Shown here piece by piece: positions 2,359 to 32,473 of a DNA stretch of 64,000 bases; position 1 is the first letter of the stretch, and each line of letters begins with the position of its first letter. A program made the translations under genes and the position numbers. The notes under the pieces are model-generated. The model did no database searches, was not told the origin of the DNA, and saw only the letters and a list, made by a program, of their open reading frames with translations. The stretch is taken from NCBI RefSeq assembly GCF_044647545.1, contig NZ_CP172818.1; one strand, written 5' to 3'. The stretch is from Escherichia coli (GTDB taxonomy: Bacteria; Pseudomonadota; Gammaproteobacteria; Enterobacterales; Enterobacteriaceae).

Positions 2359-4977
2359 TCATTGTTGAGCCAAAGCCTGATCCGATGGTTGTGCCGTTTC
2401 GCTCCGCTCCGGGCGGCGCGGAATAAACGATACAACCCAGGAAACCAGAGAAGTCAGCACACGGAATATGCCCTTCACCGAAGAAGGCGCAAACTCCGCC
2501 AGATGGCGGTAGCCACGGAAGCCGAGCTTCAGAATATCCAGCAGACTTTCCAGCGGCTTATCTTCCGGATAGCTGTCCTGCCAGAGCGCCCATGTATCCG
2601 CACGGGCAAACGTACACTGCACAAAATCGATATGTTGCTGGGTGGTGAGCGGCATTAATTTCAGCCCAACTTCATTACCCATCACGCGCGCCACCTGGGT
2701 CGGGAAGACGTATTCCTGCTGACCGCGTTTAAGCAACAGATTCACTTTCTGCCCTTCCAGAATCTGCGCCTGACCGTTGATCTTGATCCCCAAACCACCG
2801 TCGGAGAAATCCTGAACGGTACACGAGAAGAGGTGACCATCTTCGCGGGCAATTGCCGCGGGCATCGTCATCTCCACGCGGTGCGATCGGCGTACCTGTT
2901 TGCTTTCTACCGATACCGCAACTGCGCCGCCAAGAACAATCAGGTTGTAGAATACCCACACCATACTGACGACCACGGTGAGCATCTCGGTTGGCGGGCC
3001 ATAGAAGTAGCGCCAGATGCCTACCGCAACGCCCACCAGGTTGAGCAGAACAAGGAAGATGTAGGGCCGCGAGATCACCCAGTCGACGTACTCTTCTTCC
3101 ACCAGTCCACCTTTGGCGGTGACGTTAAATTTGCCTTTGTGCGGGTTAATCAGCGCCACCAGCGTCGGTGGTGCGATATACCACGCCAGCACCGTTTCGT
3201 AGATTTCACTCCAGAAAGAGTGGCGATATTTGCCCTGGATCTTCGAGTTGGTCAGGCTGGCATGAATCATATGCGGCAGCACGAACAGGGCGATCATCAA
3301 CGCTGGCGCATAGATGATGTAGGCATGCAGCAGCAGGAACGCCAGCGGCGCAGTCAGGAAGATCAGTCGTGGAATGCCCGACAAGAAGTGGAACATGGCG
3401 TTGACATAGCACAGCCGCTGAGCAAACTTCAGCCCTTTACCGGTGAGCGGGTTATCGAGACGGAAGATTTGCACCATCCCGCGCGCCCAGCGAATACGCT
3501 GACCGATATGCGCCGACAGACTTTCGGTCGCCAGCCCCGCCGCCTGCGGAATACGCATATATGCAGAGGTGTAGCCACGACGGTGCAAACGCAGAGAAGT
3601 ATGCGCATCTTCGGTTACCGTTTCGACAGCAATGCCGCCAATCTCATCCAGCGGCTTACGGCGAATCACCGCACATGAACCGCAGAAGAAGGTGGCGTCC
3701 CACATATCGTTGCCATCCTGCACCAGACCATAGAACAGCGTACCTTCGTTCGGTGTTTTACGGAAACGTCCCAGGTTGCGTTCAAACGGGTCCGGTGAGA
3801 AGAAGTGGTGCGGCGTCTGCATCATCGCCAGTTGTTTTTCTTTCAGGAACCAGCCCATGGTCATTTGCAGGAACGATCGCGTTGGTACGTGGTCGCAGTC
3901 GAAAATCGACACGAACTCGCCTTTGGCATATTTCAGCGCATTGTTGATGTTGCCCGCTTTCGCATGTTCATGAGTGGTACGGGCGATATATTTCACCCCC
4001 ACGTTTTGCGCAAACTGGCGAAACTCTTCCCTGCCGCCGTCATCAAGGATCCAAATGTTCAGCTTGTCTTTCGGCCAGTCGATACCCAGCGAGGCGTAAA
4101 TCGTATTTTTCACCACGTTGAGATCTTCGTTGTAAGTCGGGACAAAGATATCCACCGACGGCCACAGCGACATATCTTTCGGCAATGGCACCGGCTGACG
4201 ATTCAGCGGCCATACCACCTGGAAGTAACCGAGCACCAGCACAATCCACGCGTACGTTTCGGCGAACAGCAGAATAAGCCCGCACACCAGGCTGACCGGA
4301 TCGTCCCAGTTCAGCGTAGAGGTGTAGCGCCACCAGATATAACGGCAAGAAACGGTCAGCGACAGCACAATCAACATTAGCGCCGAGAAGCGCCCCGGCA
4401 TCCGCCGTACGATCAGCGCTACACCCCACAGCAGCATCAGGAAGATAAACTGCGCCAGCGGGTTAAACGGCTGGGTAACGCAGATTAACGCCAGAATCAG
4501 CGAGAAGGTGACGATGATACCGAGGATCAACCGCCGCGCCCCGGCGCTCAAATGGCCGAGTTCTTTTTTCTCATCGAGATGCTGTGTTTTATGGCTAACG
4601 CGCTCAGGCAGCTCGTTCATCCATTGATGGTAACGTCCACGAATATTCTGCAGACCTGAAAATGTCCGCCTGCGCGGTTTCGGCGTTTCTTTGCGCGATG
4701 TACCGATCAGTAACCAGCATGTTTGAATGAGATAACGGACCGGGTCCAGCGGACGCGGACGCGAGGCGTTGATATGCGGATACAGGTTTTTATGTTCTGC
4801 GCGAATACGCTGCCAGCGCGGGTGCTCCAGCGGAATAAAAATCCAGGCCAGGATCAACCAAAAACAGCCGAGCGTCGCGCTGAAAGCCGACGCACCGTGA
4901 CGACGATAATCGCGATAACGCCCGATAAGCCGCGCGTTGACCGGCGGGATAAGCAACCACCGGGTCAGGATACTCAT
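2359..4977 (-). CDS. bcsA: Cellulose synthase catalytic subunit BcsA (GT2 glycosyltransferase with C-terminal PilZ domain)
   Basis: ORF 2359..5025 trimmed to MSILTRWLL start (872 aa); multiple TM segments; GT2 motifs (DDG, DCDH, QRIRWARG) and a PilZ-like RxxxR region visible in the translation. Confidence 0.9.
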   Translation of the reverse strand: MSILTRWLLIPPVNARLIGRYRDYRRHGASAFSATLGCFWLILAWIFIPLEHPRWQRIRAEHKNLYPHINASRPRPLDPVRYLIQTCWLLIGTSRKETPKPRRRTFSGLQNIRGRYHQWMNELPERVSHKTQHLDEKKELGHLSAGARRLILGIIVTFSLILALICVTQPFNPLAQFIFLMLLWGVALIVRRMPGRFSALMLIVLSLTVSCRYIWWRYTSTLNWDDPVSLVCGLILLFAETYAWIVLVLGYFQVVWPLNRQPVPLPKDMSLWPSVDIFVPTYNEDLNVVKNTIYASLGIDWPKDKLNIWILDDGGREEFRQFAQNVGVKYIARTTHEHAKAGNINNALKYAKGEFVSIFDCDHVPTRSFLQMTMGWFLKEKQLAMMQTPHHFFSPDPFERNLGRFRKTPNEGTLFYGLVQDGNDMWDATFFCGSCAVIRRKPLDEIGGIAVETVTEDAHTSLRLHRRGYTSAYMRIPQAAGLATESLSAHIGQRIRWARGMVQIFRLDNPLTGKGLKFAQRLCYVNAMFHFLSGIPRLIFLTAPLAFLLLHAYIIYAPALMIALFVLPHMIHASLTNSKIQGKYRHSFWSEIYETVLAWYIAPPTLVALINPHKGKFNVTAKGGLVEEEYVDWVISRPYIFLVLLNLVGVAVGIWRYFYGPPTEMLTVVVSMVWVFYNLIVLGGAVAVSVESKQVRRSHRVEMTMPAAIAREDGHLFSCTVQDFSDGGLGIKINGQAQILEGQKVNLLLKRGQQEYVFPTQVARVMGNEVGLKLMPLTTQQHIDFVQCTFARADTWALWQDSYPEDKPLESLLDILKLGFRGYRHLAEFAPSSVKGIFRVLTSLVSWVVSFIPRRPERSETAQPSDQALAQQ

Positions 4978-5726
4978 GATGCACTCCCGACTGGCGTTTT
5001 CAGCCCGGAATAGTTCAACAGGCACCAGTTAGCCAGCGTCAGTATCTCTTCAGCCGCCAGCGCATCACTGCGGTATTCACCGACTGGTTGCTTAGCCGCC
5101 AGGCATTGAGCCATCGCTTCATCACGATGAATGAGTATTGGCAGTAATCGGCGCTGGCTTTGCAACCAAAGCTGGTAAATATCGTCCTGAACCTGACTGC
5201 CGATACGGAAGTCATTAATCAAAATATGCGCGCCATCCGGCAGCGCTTGCTGATGCAGTCGGATATGGCAGTTGGCATCCACATTGACGATTGCCAGCGA
5301 GTGATCGCACAAACTCAGCAGCTGGTGGGTTATCTGTGAGGCATCACGCGGTAAGTCAATTAAAATCCACTGGTAACGCCCGCTGGCTTTTAGTTGCTGT
5401 AAGCCGGAGCAAATATCGCTCAGCCGGGTTTGCCAGTGCTGTGGATTTTCTTGTTCTTCAATGGATAACTGACCAAAAGGCAGCAAATCGAGCTGCGAGG
5501 TATAGCGCAACCCGGCGTCACGCCAGTCCTGGCCATCCAGCATAGCTCTGGCCCAGCCCTGACGGTGGGTAAAATCAACGTTAAATGACAGGCGCAACAA
5601 GTTGTCCGGGCAGGCATCGACCACCAGGACATTTTCTCCCAACATTTGTAATGACCAGGCTAATGCGGCGGTGATGGTTGTTGTCCCCACGCCTCCCCGC
5701 ACCCCCTGCAATCCCAGTACGGCCAT
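4974..5726 (-). CDS. bcsQ: Cellulose biosynthesis protein BcsQ (MinD/ParA-like ATPase); intact reading frame
   Basis: 250-aa ORF starting MAVLGLQGVRGGVGTTT (deviant Walker A); overlaps bcsA start by 4 nt; codon 6 is TTG (plus-strand caa at 5709-5711), so there is no premature stop. Confidence 0.85.
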   Translation of the reverse strand: MAVLGLQGVRGGVGTTTITAALAWSLQMLGENVLVVDACPDNLLRLSFNVDFTHRQGWARAMLDGQDWRDAGLRYTSQLDLLPFGQLSIEEQENPQHWQTRLSDICSGLQQLKASGRYQWILIDLPRDASQITHQLLSLCDHSLAIVNVDANCHIRLHQQALPDGAHILINDFRIGSQVQDDIYQLWLQSQRRLLPILIHRDEAMAQCLAAKQPVGEYRSDALAAEEILTLANWCLLNYSGLKTPVGSAS

Positions 5727-5737
5727 TCACCAATCCC

Positions 5738-5926
5738 CTACTTTTGTTGCGCAAACTCTGCCAGCAACGGCCAGCGTTTTAATGCCGCGGCCAACTGTTC
5801 GCGTTGGGAAATATCGGCATAATCAATATCAGGCAGTGAAAATGCCTGCTTTAACGCCAAAATATCATTCTGGAAGATATAGCCTATCGCGGGATCAGGC
5901 AGAGTATCTGGTTCATTGTTATTCAT
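5738..5926 (-). CDS. bcsR: Cellulose biosynthesis protein BcsR (YhjR), small DUF2629 protein
   Basis: ORF 5738..5968 trimmed to MNNNEPDTLPDP start (62 aa); first gene of the bcsRQAB operon, divergent from bcsE. Confidence 0.7.
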   Translation of the reverse strand: MNNNEPDTLPDPAIGYIFQNDILALKQAFSLPDIDYADISQREQLAAALKRWPLLAEFAQQK

Positions 5927-6197
5927 TTGCTTGATCCCTATGAAATAACCGTACCGTTCATGAGACAATTCTAACTGTGAGCATTTCGCCGGTTTATTGT
6001 TTACGGCGAGACGGGAATGTGCTCACTTTTTGACTTTCCGTTACGCAACAGAAAAAGTTAAAAACGAAAAGACTAAAATCACATGTCTTGTGACCTGCTA
6101 AATTGATTCACATGCTAAATCTGATAAGTTTTAATTTCAATGGTAGGTTTATTTCTTAGCTTTCGCTAGTAAACTGATAATCAGACAAAATGTTGAC
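5927..6197. promoter_or_regulatory. Divergent intergenic promoter region between bcsR(QAB) and bcsE(FG)
   Basis: AT-rich 270 bp spacer between divergently oriented operon first genes; individual promoter elements not mapped. Confidence 0.4.
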
Positions 6198-7769
6198 ATG
6201 AGGGACATTGTGGACCCTGTATTCTCTATCGGTATCTCATCATTATGGGATGAGCTGCGACATATGCCAGCAGGCGGCGTCTGGTGGTTTAACGTCGATC
6301 GCCATGAAGATGCTATCAGTCTGGCGAATCAAACAATTGCATCCCAGGCTGAAACCGCACACGTCGCGGTCATTAGCATGGACAGCGATCCAGCGAAAAT
6401 CTTTCAATTAGATGATTCTCAAGGGCCGGGAAAAATAACATTATTTTCAATGCTAAATCATGAAAAAGGTCTATACTATTTGGCCCGTGATTTGCAGTGT
6501 TCTATTGATCCCCATAATTACCTTTTTATTCTTGTTTGCGCAAATAACGCATGGCAAAACATTCCTGCCGAGCGGCTTCGCTCATGGTTGGATAAAATGA
6601 ATAAATGGAGCCGGCTAAACCATTGTTCGCTTTTGGTAATTAATTCCGGAAATAATAACGATAAACAATTTTCATTGTTACTTGAGGAATACCGTTCACT
6701 TTTTGGTCTTGCCAGTTTGCGTTTTCAGGGCGACCAACATTTGCTGGATATTGCTTTCTGGTGCAACGAAAAAGGGGTCAGCGCCCGTCAGCAGCTTAGC
6801 GTTCAGCAACAAAATGGTTGCTGGACATTAGTTCAACACCAAGAGGCGGAAATCCAACCACGCAGCGACGAAAAACGCATTCTGAGTAATGTTTCTGTAC
6901 TTGAAGGTGCGCCGCCGCTATCGGAACACTGGCAACTGTTCAACAATAACGAAGTCCTGTTTAATGAAGCCCGTACCGCTCAGGCGGCGACGGTGGTCTT
7001 TTCTTTACAACAAAATGCGCAAATCGAGCCACTGGCCCGCAGCATTCATACTCTGCGTCGCCAGCGCGGTAGTGCGATGAAAATCCTCGTACGGGAAAAT
7101 ACCGCTAGCCTGCGCGCCACCGATGAACGTTTGTTATTGGCCTGCGGTGCAAATATGGTTATCCCATGGAATGCCCCACTCTCCCGCTGTCTGACGATGA
7201 TCGAAAGCGTGCAAGGGCAGAAGTTTAGTCGCTATGTGCCGGAAGATATCACTACCTTGCTGTCAATGACCCAGCCGCTCAAACTGCGTGGTTTCCAGAA
7301 GTGGGATGTGTTCTGTAATGCCGTCAACAACATGATGAATAACCCTCTATTACCTGCCCACGGTAAAGGCGTTCTGGTTGCCCTACGTCCGGTACCGGGT
7401 ATCCGCGTTGAGCAAGCCCTGACGCTATGTCGCCCTAATCGCACCGGCGATATCATGACCATTGGCGGTAATCGGCTGGTGCTGTTTCTCTCATTCTGTC
7501 GGATTAACGATCTGGATACCGCGTTGAATCATATTTTCCCATTGCCTACTGGCGACATTTTCTCAAACCGTATGGTCTGGTTTGAAGATGATCAAATCAG
7601 TGCCGAGCTGGTGCAGATGCGCCTGCTTGCCCCAGAACAATGGGGCATGCCGCTGCCTTTAACGCAAAGTTCTAAACCGGTCATCAATGCCGAGCACGAT
7701 GGTCGCCACTGGCGACGAATACCAGAACCAATGCGACTGTTAGATGATGCTGTGGAGCGCTCATCATGA
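6198..7769 (+). CDS. bcsE: Cellulose biosynthesis protein BcsE (c-di-GMP-binding GIL-domain protein)
   Basis: 523-aa ORF starting at ATG 6198; expected position and length for BcsE (YhjS). Confidence 0.85.
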
Positions 7770-7957
7770 TGACCATCAGCGATATCATTGAAATTATTGT
7801 CGTTTGCGCACTGATATTTTTCCCGCTGGGCTATCTGGCGCGGCACTCTTTGCGACGCATTCGCGACACCTTACGTTTGTTCTTTGCTAAACCTCGTTAT
7901 GTTAAACCGGCCGGGACGTTACGCCGCACGGAAAAAGCCAGGGCAACCAAAAAATGA
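7766..7957 (+). CDS. bcsF: Cellulose biosynthesis protein BcsF (small membrane protein)
   Basis: 63-aa ORF with one hydrophobic helix ([18 protein letters not shown]); 4-nt overlaps with bcsE and bcsG indicate translational coupling. Confidence 0.7.
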
Positions 7958-9633
7958 CTCAATTTACGCAAAATACCGCCATGCCTTCTTCCCTCTGGCA
8001 ATACTGGCGCGGCCTTTCCGGCTGGAACTTCTATTTTCTGGTTAAGTTCGGCCTGTTGTGGGCGGGATATCTTAACTTCCATCCGCTCCTCAATCTGGTG
8101 TTTGCCGCGTTTCTGCTGATGCCCATTCCGCGCTACAGCCTGCATCGCTTACGCCACTGGATTGCCCTGCCGATCGGCTTTGCTTTGTTCTGGCATGACA
8201 CCTGGTTGCCTGGCCCGGAAAGCATAATGAGCCAGGGTTCGCAGGTGGCGGGGTTCAGTACCGATTATTTAATCGACCTTGTCACACGCTTTATTAACTG
8301 GCAGATGATTGGGGCCATTTTTGTTTTATTAGTGGCCTGGTTATTCCTGTCACAATGGATTCGCATTACCGTTTTTGTGGTTGCCATTCTGCTATGGCTG
8401 AACGTACTTACCCTGGCGGGACCAAGTTTCTCCTTGTGGCCAGCCGGTCAACCAACGACCACTGTAACAACGACGGGTGGTAACGCAGCGGCAACCGTTG
8501 CGGCGACGGGTGGCGCACCGGTAGTGGGTGATATGCCCGCACAAACTGCACCGCCAACAACGGCGAACCTTAACGCCTGGCTGAATAATTTCTATAACGC
8601 GGAGGCGAAACGTAAATCAATCTTCCCGTCTTCGCTGCCCGCTGATGCTCAGCCATTTGAACTACTGGTGATTAATATCTGTTCGCTTTCCTGGTCGGAT
8701 ATTGAAGCCGCCGGGTTGATGTCGCATCCGCTGTGGTCGCATTTCGATATTGAGTTCAAGAACTTTAACTCCGCCACCTCCTACAGTGGCCCGGCGGCGA
8801 TCCGTTTACTGCGCGCCAGCTGCGGGCAGACTTCGCACACTAATCTGTATCAACCGGCAAATAACGACTGCTATCTGTTTGATAACCTGTCGAAACTGGG
8901 CTTTACCCAGCACCTGATGATGGGACATAACGGCCAGTTCGGCGGTTTTTTGAAAGAAGTTCGCGAAAATGGCGGCATGCAGACCGAATTGATGGATCAA
9001 ACAAATCTGCCGGTTGTTTTGCTGGGCTTTGATGGTTCGCCGGTTTATGACGATACCGCCGTGCTTAACCGCTGGCTGGACGTTACCGAAAAAGATAAAA
9101 ACAGCCGTAGTGCCACGTTCTACAACACGCTTCCACTGCATGACGGCAACCATTATCCGGGCGTCAGCAAAACAGCGGATTACAAAGCGAGGGCGCAGAA
9201 ATTCTTTGATGAACTGGACGCCTTCTTTACTGAACTGGAGAAATCGGGTCGTAAAGTGATGGTGGTCGTGGTGCCAGAACACGGCGGCGCGCTGAAGGGC
9301 GACAGAATGCAGGTATCTGGCCTACGTGATATCCCTAGCCCGTCTATCACAGACGTCCCCGTTGGGGTGAAATTCTTCGGCATGAAGGCACCACATCAGG
9401 GGGCACCGATTGTCATCGACCAACCGAGCAGCTTCCTGGCTATCTCCGATCTGGTGGTTCGCGTTCTTGATGGCAAGATTTTCTCCGAAGACAATGTTGA
9501 CTGGAAAAAACTCACCAGTGGGTTGCCACAAACAGCACCGGTCTCCGAGAACTCAAATGCAGTAGTTATTCAATACCAGGATAAACCGTACGTTCGCCTG
9601 AACGGCGGCGACTGGGTGCCTTACCCGCAATAA
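7954..9633 (+). CDS. bcsG: Cellulose phosphoethanolamine transferase BcsG (alkaline-phosphatase superfamily)
   Basis: 559-aa ORF; N-terminal TM helices, a Thr/Ala/Gly-rich linker ([20 protein letters not shown]), then a C-terminal catalytic domain; correct position after bcsF. Confidence 0.85.
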
Positions 9634-9718: not shown

Positions 9719-9826
9719 TTACTTCCGCTTATTCAGCCAGTTCACGATCAGACTGGCAAGAATGCCAGCAATGACCGGAGCCGCTAAATCATGCCAGAAG
9801 GCCATGCCCAGCTCTGCGAGCGTCAT
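9719..9826 (-). CDS. ldrD: Type I toxin LdrD (35-aa small toxic membrane peptide)
   Basis: Minus-strand reading MTLAELGMAFWHDLAAPVIAGILASLIVNWLNKRK (35 aa) from ATG at 9826 to stop at 9719; matches the Ldr toxin family sequence. Confidence 0.8.
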   Translation of the reverse strand: MTLAELGMAFWHDLAAPVIAGILASLIVNWLNKRK

Positions 9827-9871: not shown

Positions 9872-9938
9872 GTGGTCTAGAGTCAAGATTAGCCCCCGTG
9901 ATGTTGTCAGGTGCATACCTGCAACGTGCGGGGGTTTT
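9872..9938 (+). ncRNA. rdlD: Antisense antitoxin RNA RdlD (approximate boundaries)
   Basis: Plus-strand GC hairpin (cccccg...cggggg, 9893-9934) followed by TTTT lies in the ldrD 5' leader, where the Rdl antisense RNA is expected; the 5' end is a guess. Confidence 0.4.
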
Positions 9939-10301
9939 CTCTCTCCAGCAACCAATGCCACCAGGGATAAAGCCCCCGCAACATTGCGCCTCACCGGAAC
10001 CTTTCCGGCTTGCCACTGATTCTACGATTGCTTTTTACCGTCAGCACCCGGCAATCTTCCTCATTGCGTGATGCATTCCAGCTTAATTTCTTTATTTGCA
10101 ATAGTTGCAGTTCATATCCGGGCTGACTCCAGACTGGTAGTGAAATGCGCATTTTTGTAGAATTGCGCCTCCTCGCGACCTCCCCAGTGAATCTGTTGCC
10201 TCATTTTTTACATACTGCGTATTCGACTTCTCCACCTGTTGCGCAAGAGAAACTGGGTTTATTCATTTTTGCGAGGCCGACTTCTTTCTGGACAGGACTT
10301 T

Positions 10302-17287: not shown

Positions 17288-17857
17288 TATTCTGCTCCAA
17301 TTGTGATGTTTGTTGTTTTAACCCTTTGCAGTGGGTTGTCGCCGCCTGACCTTTTTTGTTTTTTGCCCGGTCGGGTCAACGTTATGAGGTGGGGATGCCG
17401 TACTAATTAACATCAGTGTAACAGTGCGGATCCTCCAGAAAATGCCCCTCGTGACCTACAATCTGTCAACAGAATGTGAAAACGTCAATACAGCCAACCG
17501 GGATTTACACCAACGGTGAGAATCAACAAACAAAGATTAAAAAAACTTCAAACAGCTATTTGCAGCAGAGAAATTTGTGCTACGCCAACACAACCAGAAC
17601 AATCAGCTTAATATTTAGCAACATTTGGTGATTAAGTTTTATGCATTTAATGAAAAAAATCTGAGGTAAAGGTGGATATCTGAGCGATTAATACCATGAA
17701 CGCTAAAACGCACAGGGGAAAATGCCAGCGCCAGCCATAAGTAACGCAAAAAAAGATTTAAGCAAATATAAAAAAAGACAATGGTTTCTGTCACAAATCC
17801 GTTAATGGATAGTGAGATATGGGGCGCAAATTTGGCAGGGAAATGTGTGGTGTGTAG

Positions 17858-17960
17858 ATCGGATAAGGCGGTCGCGCCGCATCCGACAATGGGCCGGTAC
17901 ATTTGCCTGATGCGACGCTGACGCGCCTTATCAGGCCTGCATCGAGTCGAACCTCCTTGT
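17858..17960. repeat. BIME/REP element (two inverted REP units)
   Basis: ggataaggcggtcgcgccgcatccgaca followed by gcctgatgcgacgctgacgcgccttatcaggcctgc; matches the REP consensus pattern (GCCGGATGCGGCG...CTTATCAGGCCTAC). Confidence 0.6.
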
Positions 17961-18801: not shown

Positions 18802-18878
<77 letters not shown>

Positions 18879-30038: not shown

Positions 30039-30234
30039 TTGCATCACCCGCCAATGCGTGGCTTAATGCACATCAACGGTTTGACGTACAGACCATTAAA
30101 GCAGTGTAGTAAGGCAAGTCCCTTCAAGAGTTATCGTTGATACCCCTCGTAGTGCACATTCCTTTAACGCTTCAAAATCTGTAAAGCACGCCATATCGCC
30201 GAAAGGCACACTTAATTATTAAAGGTAATACACT
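30039..30234 (+). promoter_or_regulatory. cspA: cspA promoter (-35 TTGCAT, -10 CTTAAT, AT-rich UP element) and about 160-nt cold-responsive 5' UTR
   Basis: TTGCAT at 30039-30044 and CTTAAT at 30062-30067 with a 17 bp spacer; a long leader precedes the ATG at 30235, consistent with the thermosensing cspA 5' UTR. Confidence 0.7.
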
Positions 30235-30447
30235 ATGTCTGGTAAAATGACTGGTATCGTAAAATGGTTCAACGCTGACAAAGGCTTCGGCTTCATCACT
30301 CCTGACGATGGCTCTAAAGACGTGTTCGTACACTTCTCTGCTATCCAGAACGATGGTTACAAATCTCTGGACGAAGGTCAGAAAGTGTCCTTCACCATCG
30401 AAAGCGGCGCTAAAGGCCCGGCAGCTGGTAACGTAACCAGCCTGTAA
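30235..30447 (+). CDS. cspA: Major cold shock protein CspA
   Basis: 70-aa [73 protein letters not shown]; RNP1 motif KGFGFI and RNP2 motif VFVHF. Confidence 0.95.
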
Positions 30448-30474
30448 TCTCTGCTTAAAAGCACAGAATCTAAG

Positions 30475-30502
30475 ATCCCTGCCAAATGGCGGGGATTTTT
30501 TT
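30475..30502 (+). terminator. Rho-independent terminator of cspA
   Basis: Hairpin atccctgcc-aaat-ggcggggat followed by TTTTTTT. Confidence 0.7.
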
Positions 30503-32237: not shown

Positions 32238-32473
32238 CTGTCCAACTTTTTGGGGTCAGTACACACTTTGATTTATAGTCAGGTGGGGCTTTTCTCTGTC
32301 TGCCTTTCGGTGAATACCTGAGACAAACAGTCTCAAGCACCCGTGGCTATTCTAGCTTAATAAGTTCGTTTCTTCTCCTTGATATAATCCTAAAAAAATC
32401 TCATAAAATTAATATATGAGACAATCTTTATTCAGCAGAAGATTATTAAAGGTTGCTCTATTATTTAGCGATA

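Follow-up and report, generated by a model that had tools for sequence, protein, structure and literature searches.

The low-complexity segment of Escherichia coli BcsG joins a predicted disordered tether to a conserved proline-rich motif and rarely varies in length between strains

Within the cellulose synthase complex, BcsG acts as a phosphoethanolamine transferase, taking its group from phosphatidylethanolamine of the inner membrane and placing it on nascent cellulose. In the E. coli K-12 protein (YhjU; PDB 9FMV/9FNN, PMC11470070; 9B8V, PMC11379886), the interdomain linker is proposed to be a flexible tether from a five-helix membrane domain to a periplasmic domain of the alkaline-phosphatase fold. 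Five transmembrane helices were resolved by cryo-EM (PMC11470070), and the catalytic domain was unresolved and described as 'flexibly attached' via a linker of ~45 residues able to span >80 Å (PMC11379886). Published linker lengths are about 30, about 45 and 48 residues, and the flexible-tether shuttling model is a proposal of the two cryo-EM papers (PMC11470070, PMC11379886). Like BcsG, the lipid A phosphoethanolamine transferases EptA and MCR-1 have a membrane domain of several helices at the N-terminus, connected by a linker to a periplasmic alkaline-phosphatase-fold domain. LtaS follows the same plan, with a membrane domain, a linker, and an extracellular alkaline-phosphatase-fold domain. 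The likeness is one of overall plan; the BcsG tether is longer than the linkers of EptA, MCR-1, and LtaS and is of low complexity. The comparison with EptA was drawn directly in PMC11470070, where it was pointed out that donor and acceptor of EptA both remain in the membrane, so that a long reach is unneeded.

Here, we compare these systems with bcsG in a 64,000-nucleotide stretch of E. coli DNA from contig NZ_CP172818.1 (the window), in which a Thr/Ala/Gly-rich segment had been noticed from the sequence alone. The window carries the E. coli type II cellulose locus, with a bcsEFG operon divergent from bcsRQAB. The open reading frame list places bcsA, bcsQ, and bcsR at 2359-5968 on the minus strand, and bcsE (6198-7769) and bcsF (7766-7957), both recognized by Pfam matches, precede bcsG (7954-9633; 559 codons plus stop) on the plus strand, in the order annotated in RefSeq genomes. 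The first-pass annotation had named the gene that contains the segment bcsG, which is confirmed by the open reading frame list, by Pfam, and by structural homologs. The PF11658 (BcsG / CBP_BcsG) match spans residues 24-554 and covers profile positions 1-516 of 516 (E = 2e-235), scoring 782.5 bits where the curated cut-off is 24.8. E. coli BcsG of PDB 9b8v aligns end to end over the 559 residues, the alignment marking seven substitutions, and the E. coli BcsG chain of PDB 9fmv is also a full-length match. Of the crystallised constructs, 6pcz aligns to residues 163-559 and 5ojh to residues 185-559.

The window protein is identical to K-12 BcsG over residues 59-222, whole linker included, and its six differences (I58L, I223T, T344S, V355I, D489E, and S511T) all lie outside the linker. 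BcsG of Salmonella enterica (PDB 5OJH/5OLT) also has 559 residues and is 84% identical, with a linker of equal length and an identical motif at residues 192-210, and differs from the window protein by several substitutions in the variable part of the linker. Cys243, Glu442, and His443, which we take to be the metal ligands of BcsG, are present in the window protein, as is Ser278; each is at least 90% conserved in an alignment of 145 BcsG sequences, in which His396 is invariant. Ser278 is the catalytic nucleophile (PMC11379886).

Some observations concern the surroundings of the gene. The 90%-identity protein cluster that holds E. coli BcsG (19,377 members) also includes 523-aa proteins named BcsE, which is probably a clustering artefact, perhaps arising via fused or mis-called BcsE-F-G products. 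Between bcsG and yhjV lies a known type I toxin-antitoxin pair, composed of a 35-aa LdrD toxin frame (MTLAELGMAFWHDLAAPVIAGILASLIVNWLNKRK; 9719-9826, minus strand) within a listed 91-aa open reading frame and the rdlD antisense RNA (9875-9940, plus strand; Rfam RF01813, 88 bits). One ldr copy occupies this site in the window and three do so in strain TUM9757. Other Rfam matches at gathering score are unrelated to the linker, namely the cspA thermoregulator 5'UTR (30075-30502, plus), a sok-like antitoxin RNA (32246-32342, minus), naRNA4 (17857-17937, plus), and a tRNA (18805-18878, minus).

The segment itself comprises the 37 residues 168-204 of BcsG (8455-8565, plus strand); the interval 8455-8575 of the first-pass annotation encodes 40 residues in the bcsG frame, its end overshooting the quoted 37-residue peptide by three codons and one base. 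It had been called compositionally distinct from the remaining protein, and so it is, with Thr, Ala, Gly, and Pro making up 78% of its residues as compared to 24.5% elsewhere in BcsG, and Thr alone 30% as compared to 4.4%. In a scan of the whole protein, the 37-residue window richest in these four residues and the one of lowest entropy both begin at residue 168, and the highest-scoring window outside the linker reaches 35%. The GC content is likewise raised (64% in the segment versus 52% in bcsG). At the DNA level, however, the segment is not repetitive. With the minimum score set to 30, Tandem Repeats Finder reported no tandem repeat between 8300 and 8750. Thr is specified eleven times, by a mixture of ACG, ACC, ACT, and ACA. 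Low complexity is thus confined to the protein, and the segment does not contain the tandem DNA repeat that characterizes slippage-prone coding repeats.

The earlier placement of the segment in the linker that leads from the transmembrane domain to the periplasmic catalytic domain agrees with the published BcsG interdomain linker, yet only part of it has the properties of a tether. In an AlphaFold2 model derived from 145 orthologues, with a mean pLDDT of 87, two regions have pLDDT <50, residues 1-11 and residues 158-191, and both domains that flank the latter exceed 90. The membrane-anchor region (residues 24-157; 8023-8424, plus strand), delineated by the modelled helices and Kyte-Doolittle hydrophobic stretches, has helices of high pLDDT at residues 24-36, 44-55, 61-82, 103-113, 116-132, and, as the last one, 138-154. 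It is followed by the predicted disordered tether, residues 158-191 (34 aa; 8425-8526, plus strand), which has low pLDDT, variable sequence, and indels between genera and is free of charged residues upstream of Asp193. The mean pLDDT then rises to 79 at residues 191-200 and to 95 at residues 201-210, with a helix from residue 203. Residues 192-210 (8527-8583, plus strand) form a conserved motif with which the catalytic domain begins, and the rest of this domain (residues 211-559; 8584-9630, plus strand), as defined by the alignments of 6pcz and 5ojh, has pLDDT mostly >90.

Conservation divides the segment at the same place. Mean identity to E. coli across 115 Enterobacteriaceae cluster representatives is 82% in the membrane domain, 58% in the tether (scored at residues 168-191), 79% in residues 192-204, and 81% in the catalytic domain, and the motif GD[MI]PAQTAPPT[ST]xNLNxWL at residues 192-210 has zero indels in these representatives. 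Based on this split in pLDDT and conservation, the segment consists of the last 24 residues of a 34-residue tether and the first 13 residues of the conserved motif. The boundaries proposed for the linker therefore hold for the larger part, which is in the tether, and need revision at both ends: predicted disorder begins at residue 158, 10 residues earlier, and residues 192-204 are conserved, free of indels, and confidently modelled. Predicted disorder, together with the absence of cryo-EM density for the whole catalytic domain, identifies residues 158-191 as a putative disordered interdomain linker. Sequence comparison shows these residues to be linker-like also in being poorly conserved in sequence and length relative to the flanking domains, whereas residues 192-204 are not. 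The Pro-rich motif runs on into the first catalytic-domain helix and probably packs against this domain, as suggested by its conservation and model confidence. For construct design, residues 192-210 are best retained with the catalytic domain, and the tether is better placed at residues 158-191.

The first-pass annotation had expected the linker to be a frequent site of in-frame length variation between strains and had suggested an alignment of BcsG orthologues focused on linker length. In such alignments length does vary across orthologues, with 31-37 residues between genera and a still wider spread in distant relatives, but it is stable between E. coli strains. The invariance across orthologues that would have refuted the expectation was thus not seen, and the general idea holds at deep evolutionary distances while failing at the level of strains. 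As a gauge of length we used the spacing between the conserved anchors R137 and F213, which is 75 residues in E. coli. Among 119 Enterobacteriaceae clusters (at least 74% identity), 75 share the E. coli value of 75 and the others lie within 71-78, except for one outlier with a spacing of 14, which represents a deletion allele. In 92 distant representatives (at most 57% identity) with both anchors present, the median spacing is 56 and the extremes are 23 and 106. The tether at residues 158-191 has 31-37 residues in Enterobacteriaceae, and 73 of 115 representatives have exactly 34. Counted against the E. coli sequence, indel runs in these 115 sequences number 44 in the tether, 43 at the extreme N-terminus, 30 in the membrane-anchor region, and 2 across the 340 residues of the catalytic domain, which translates into 0.0113 indels per residue per sequence in the tether versus 0.0001 in the catalytic domain (~100-fold). 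The tether is an indel hotspot in relative terms, and still its net length stays at 31-37 residues. At the end of the last helix, many sequences of the Enterobacteriaceae linker alignment lack a residue aligned to G156. Exactly 559 residues were counted in 84 of the 115 representative proteins, despite linker indels in 42 and N-terminal indels in 41.

Within E. coli, the expectation of frequent in-frame length variation was not borne out. We surveyed 5,426 complete genomes with three nucleotide queries of 351, 123, and 78 nt. The 351-nt query matched 5,349 genomes, and each of the 39 full-length rows taken at even intervals along the ranking has a span of 351 nt. The 123-nt linker query matched 5,346 genomes, all at an identity of at least 95%, and in 5,340 the match extends over at least 80% of the query; 59 of 59 sampled full-length rows span 123 nt. 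The top match to both queries, identical to the window, was strain FDAARGOS_497. The 78-nt query (codons 168-193) matched 5,341 genomes, 3,961 of them identically. An in-frame indel would score at most 96.2% on this query and rank below ~5,250, and the row at rank ~5,250 of 5,341 has one substitution and an unchanged span. In-frame indels are accordingly present in at most ~90 genomes (1.7%), which is an upper limit, and at least 5,250 of the 5,341 complete genomes (at least 98.3%) are free of an in-frame indel in codons 168-193; codons 194-204 were covered through the sampled rows. Six complete alleles from diverse strains all have 559 codons, and length is unchanged in five full-length strains, two of which were chosen from the low-identity end of the ranking. 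The linkers differ from the window in protein sequence by M194I, G192S, or A196E, one in each of three strains, and the other differences are synonymous.

The weakest match of the 123-nt query led to the sole in-frame variant found, a 33-bp deletion. A 10-bp direct repeat, CGACGGGTGG, is present here in two copies, which an exact-repeat scan located at 8471-8480 (copy 1, the left junction of the deletion) and, 33 bp or 11 codons downstream, at 8504-8513 (copy 2; both plus strand); the deletion takes out one of the copies and the intervening 23 bp. The 11 missing residues align as 174-184, and the deletion thereby shortens the tether to 23 residues. A junction query that is unable to seed on the wild type (longest shared word 27 nt) retrieved the deletion from 5 of 5,426 complete genomes (0.09%). 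In strains AF5, FDAARGOS_1267, B1172, and AST216, from four countries, the allele equals that of IHE3034 except for the deletion and encodes protein WP_001519015.1. In the fifth genome, PCP06171, the deletion resides on a K-12-like allele with an internal stop codon. Its sequence is separated from that of the other four by 34 differences, among them one 22 nt before and one 32 nt after the deleted stretch. Presence on two unrelated haplotypes, IHE3034-like and K-12-like, 34 sites apart, indicates that the deletion arose at least twice. The 548-aa BcsG (WP_001519015.1) occurs on 666 contigs of a public protein collection, which marks it as an established allele and not an assembly error, and all remaining bcs genes of FDAARGOS_1267 are annotated as intact. 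The deletion probably formed by recombination or slippage between the two 10-bp direct repeats; the reciprocal 33-bp duplication had zero matches in a junction query of the 5,426 genomes. As a special feature, the CGACGGGTGG repeat was rejected, since codon shuffling of the segment yields a repeat of 10 nt or longer in 5% of trials; it arises as a by-product from low complexity and is not a designed element. A literature search turned up no description of a natural 11-residue deletion, which is weak negative evidence.

Larger bcsG deletions are of a different kind. A repeat scan found an 8-bp direct repeat, TGGCTGAA, with copies 183 bp apart (8395-8402 and 8578-8585, plus strand), a spacing that matches a 61-residue in-frame deletion in protein P0010 of an E. 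coli O157 draft genome. A junction query for this 183-bp deletion had zero matches in complete genomes, and the allele is confined to draft and MAG records. Protein P0285, from a MAG, lacks the 55 residues 116-170 of BcsG, and strain PK6 has a frameshifting 94-bp deletion at 8396-8489. Because transmembrane sequence is also removed or the frame is broken, the deletions of P0010, P0285, and PK6 are probably loss-of-function alleles and not cases of linker-length tuning. In strain TUM9757, where bcsB is also frameshifted, a large deletion has fused mid-bcsG to what remains of bcsA, a 3' part that is annotated as a PilZ domain fragment; the cellulose locus of this strain is decaying, and this deletion likewise looks like loss of function.

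Taken as a whole, residues 168-204 might instead be a functional element, either a site of processing, from which the catalytic domain would be released in soluble form, or a surface that binds cellulose or BcsB. LtaS, a related enzyme, is cleaved in its linker. The conservation of residues 192-210, which are as free of indels and as conserved as the two domains, and the little-changed linker protein sequence among diverse E. coli strains would both be expected of such an element. Yet the model joins the conserved part to the catalytic domain without a break and with high confidence, and residues 168-191 are only 58% identical across close genera and unalignable in distant orthologues. Moreover, cleavage was not reported in the BcsG literature examined, and a lineage in which the other bcs genes are intact has kept the 11-residue deletion. 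The proposal fits residues 192-210 only and finds no support in the papers examined, and for the entire segment we regard it as very improbable.

The notion that the tract is a hypervariable, slippage-prone locus, acting as a tunable spacer or contingency-like site, deserves scarcely any credence and is largely refuted for E. coli: the between-genera concentration of indels in residues 158-191, ~100-fold per residue over the catalytic domain, the independent recurrence of the 33-bp deletion, and the other rare deletions that terminate in or near the linker speak for it, but the DNA lacks a tandem repeat, all 98 of 98 sampled full-length rows keep their length, the genomes free of in-frame indels and the rarity of the deletion allele leave little room for variation, the reciprocal duplication was not found among the complete genomes, and the larger deletions look like loss of function.

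The segment is thus very probably most of the already-described BcsG interdomain linker, with boundaries refined to a tether at residues 158-191 and a motif at residues 192-210. This linker is known and ordinary, and the refined boundaries and the recurrent 11-residue deletion are small additions to its description. In accordance with the published model, the disordered Thr/Ala/Gly/Pro-rich tether would give the catalytic domain its reach, and the domain would travel back and forth between the donor lipid at the membrane surface and the cellulose chain that exits BcsA-BcsB. Residues 192-210 are not part of the tether, the Pro-rich motif being modelled as continuous with the catalytic domain. 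Between genera, the tether sequence drifts and gains small indels, with widely different lengths in distant orthologues, and its length is kept at 34 ± 3 residues in Enterobacteriaceae and essentially fixed in E. coli.

Stability of tether length between E. coli strains likely results from mixed synonymous codons and the absence of tandem DNA repeats, which would make slippage rare. Stabilising selection on tether length may be a second, less certain reason. Near-constant length in Enterobacteriaceae despite sequence drift is compatible with a length requirement, and could simply be due to a common ancestor in the recent past together with indels being rare as mutations. It is tempting, though speculative and on balance unlikely, to view tether length as a molecular ruler, in which ~34 residues in Enterobacteriaceae would match the distance from the membrane to the path of cellulose in the BcsB crown, and the 548-aa allele would alter the amount or pattern of pEtN. 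If this were true, the 11-residue-shorter allele would be a natural experiment on reach versus modification density. Retained in an otherwise intact bcs operon, the natural Δ11 tether allele could serve to test whether cellulose modification by BcsG has a requirement for tether length.
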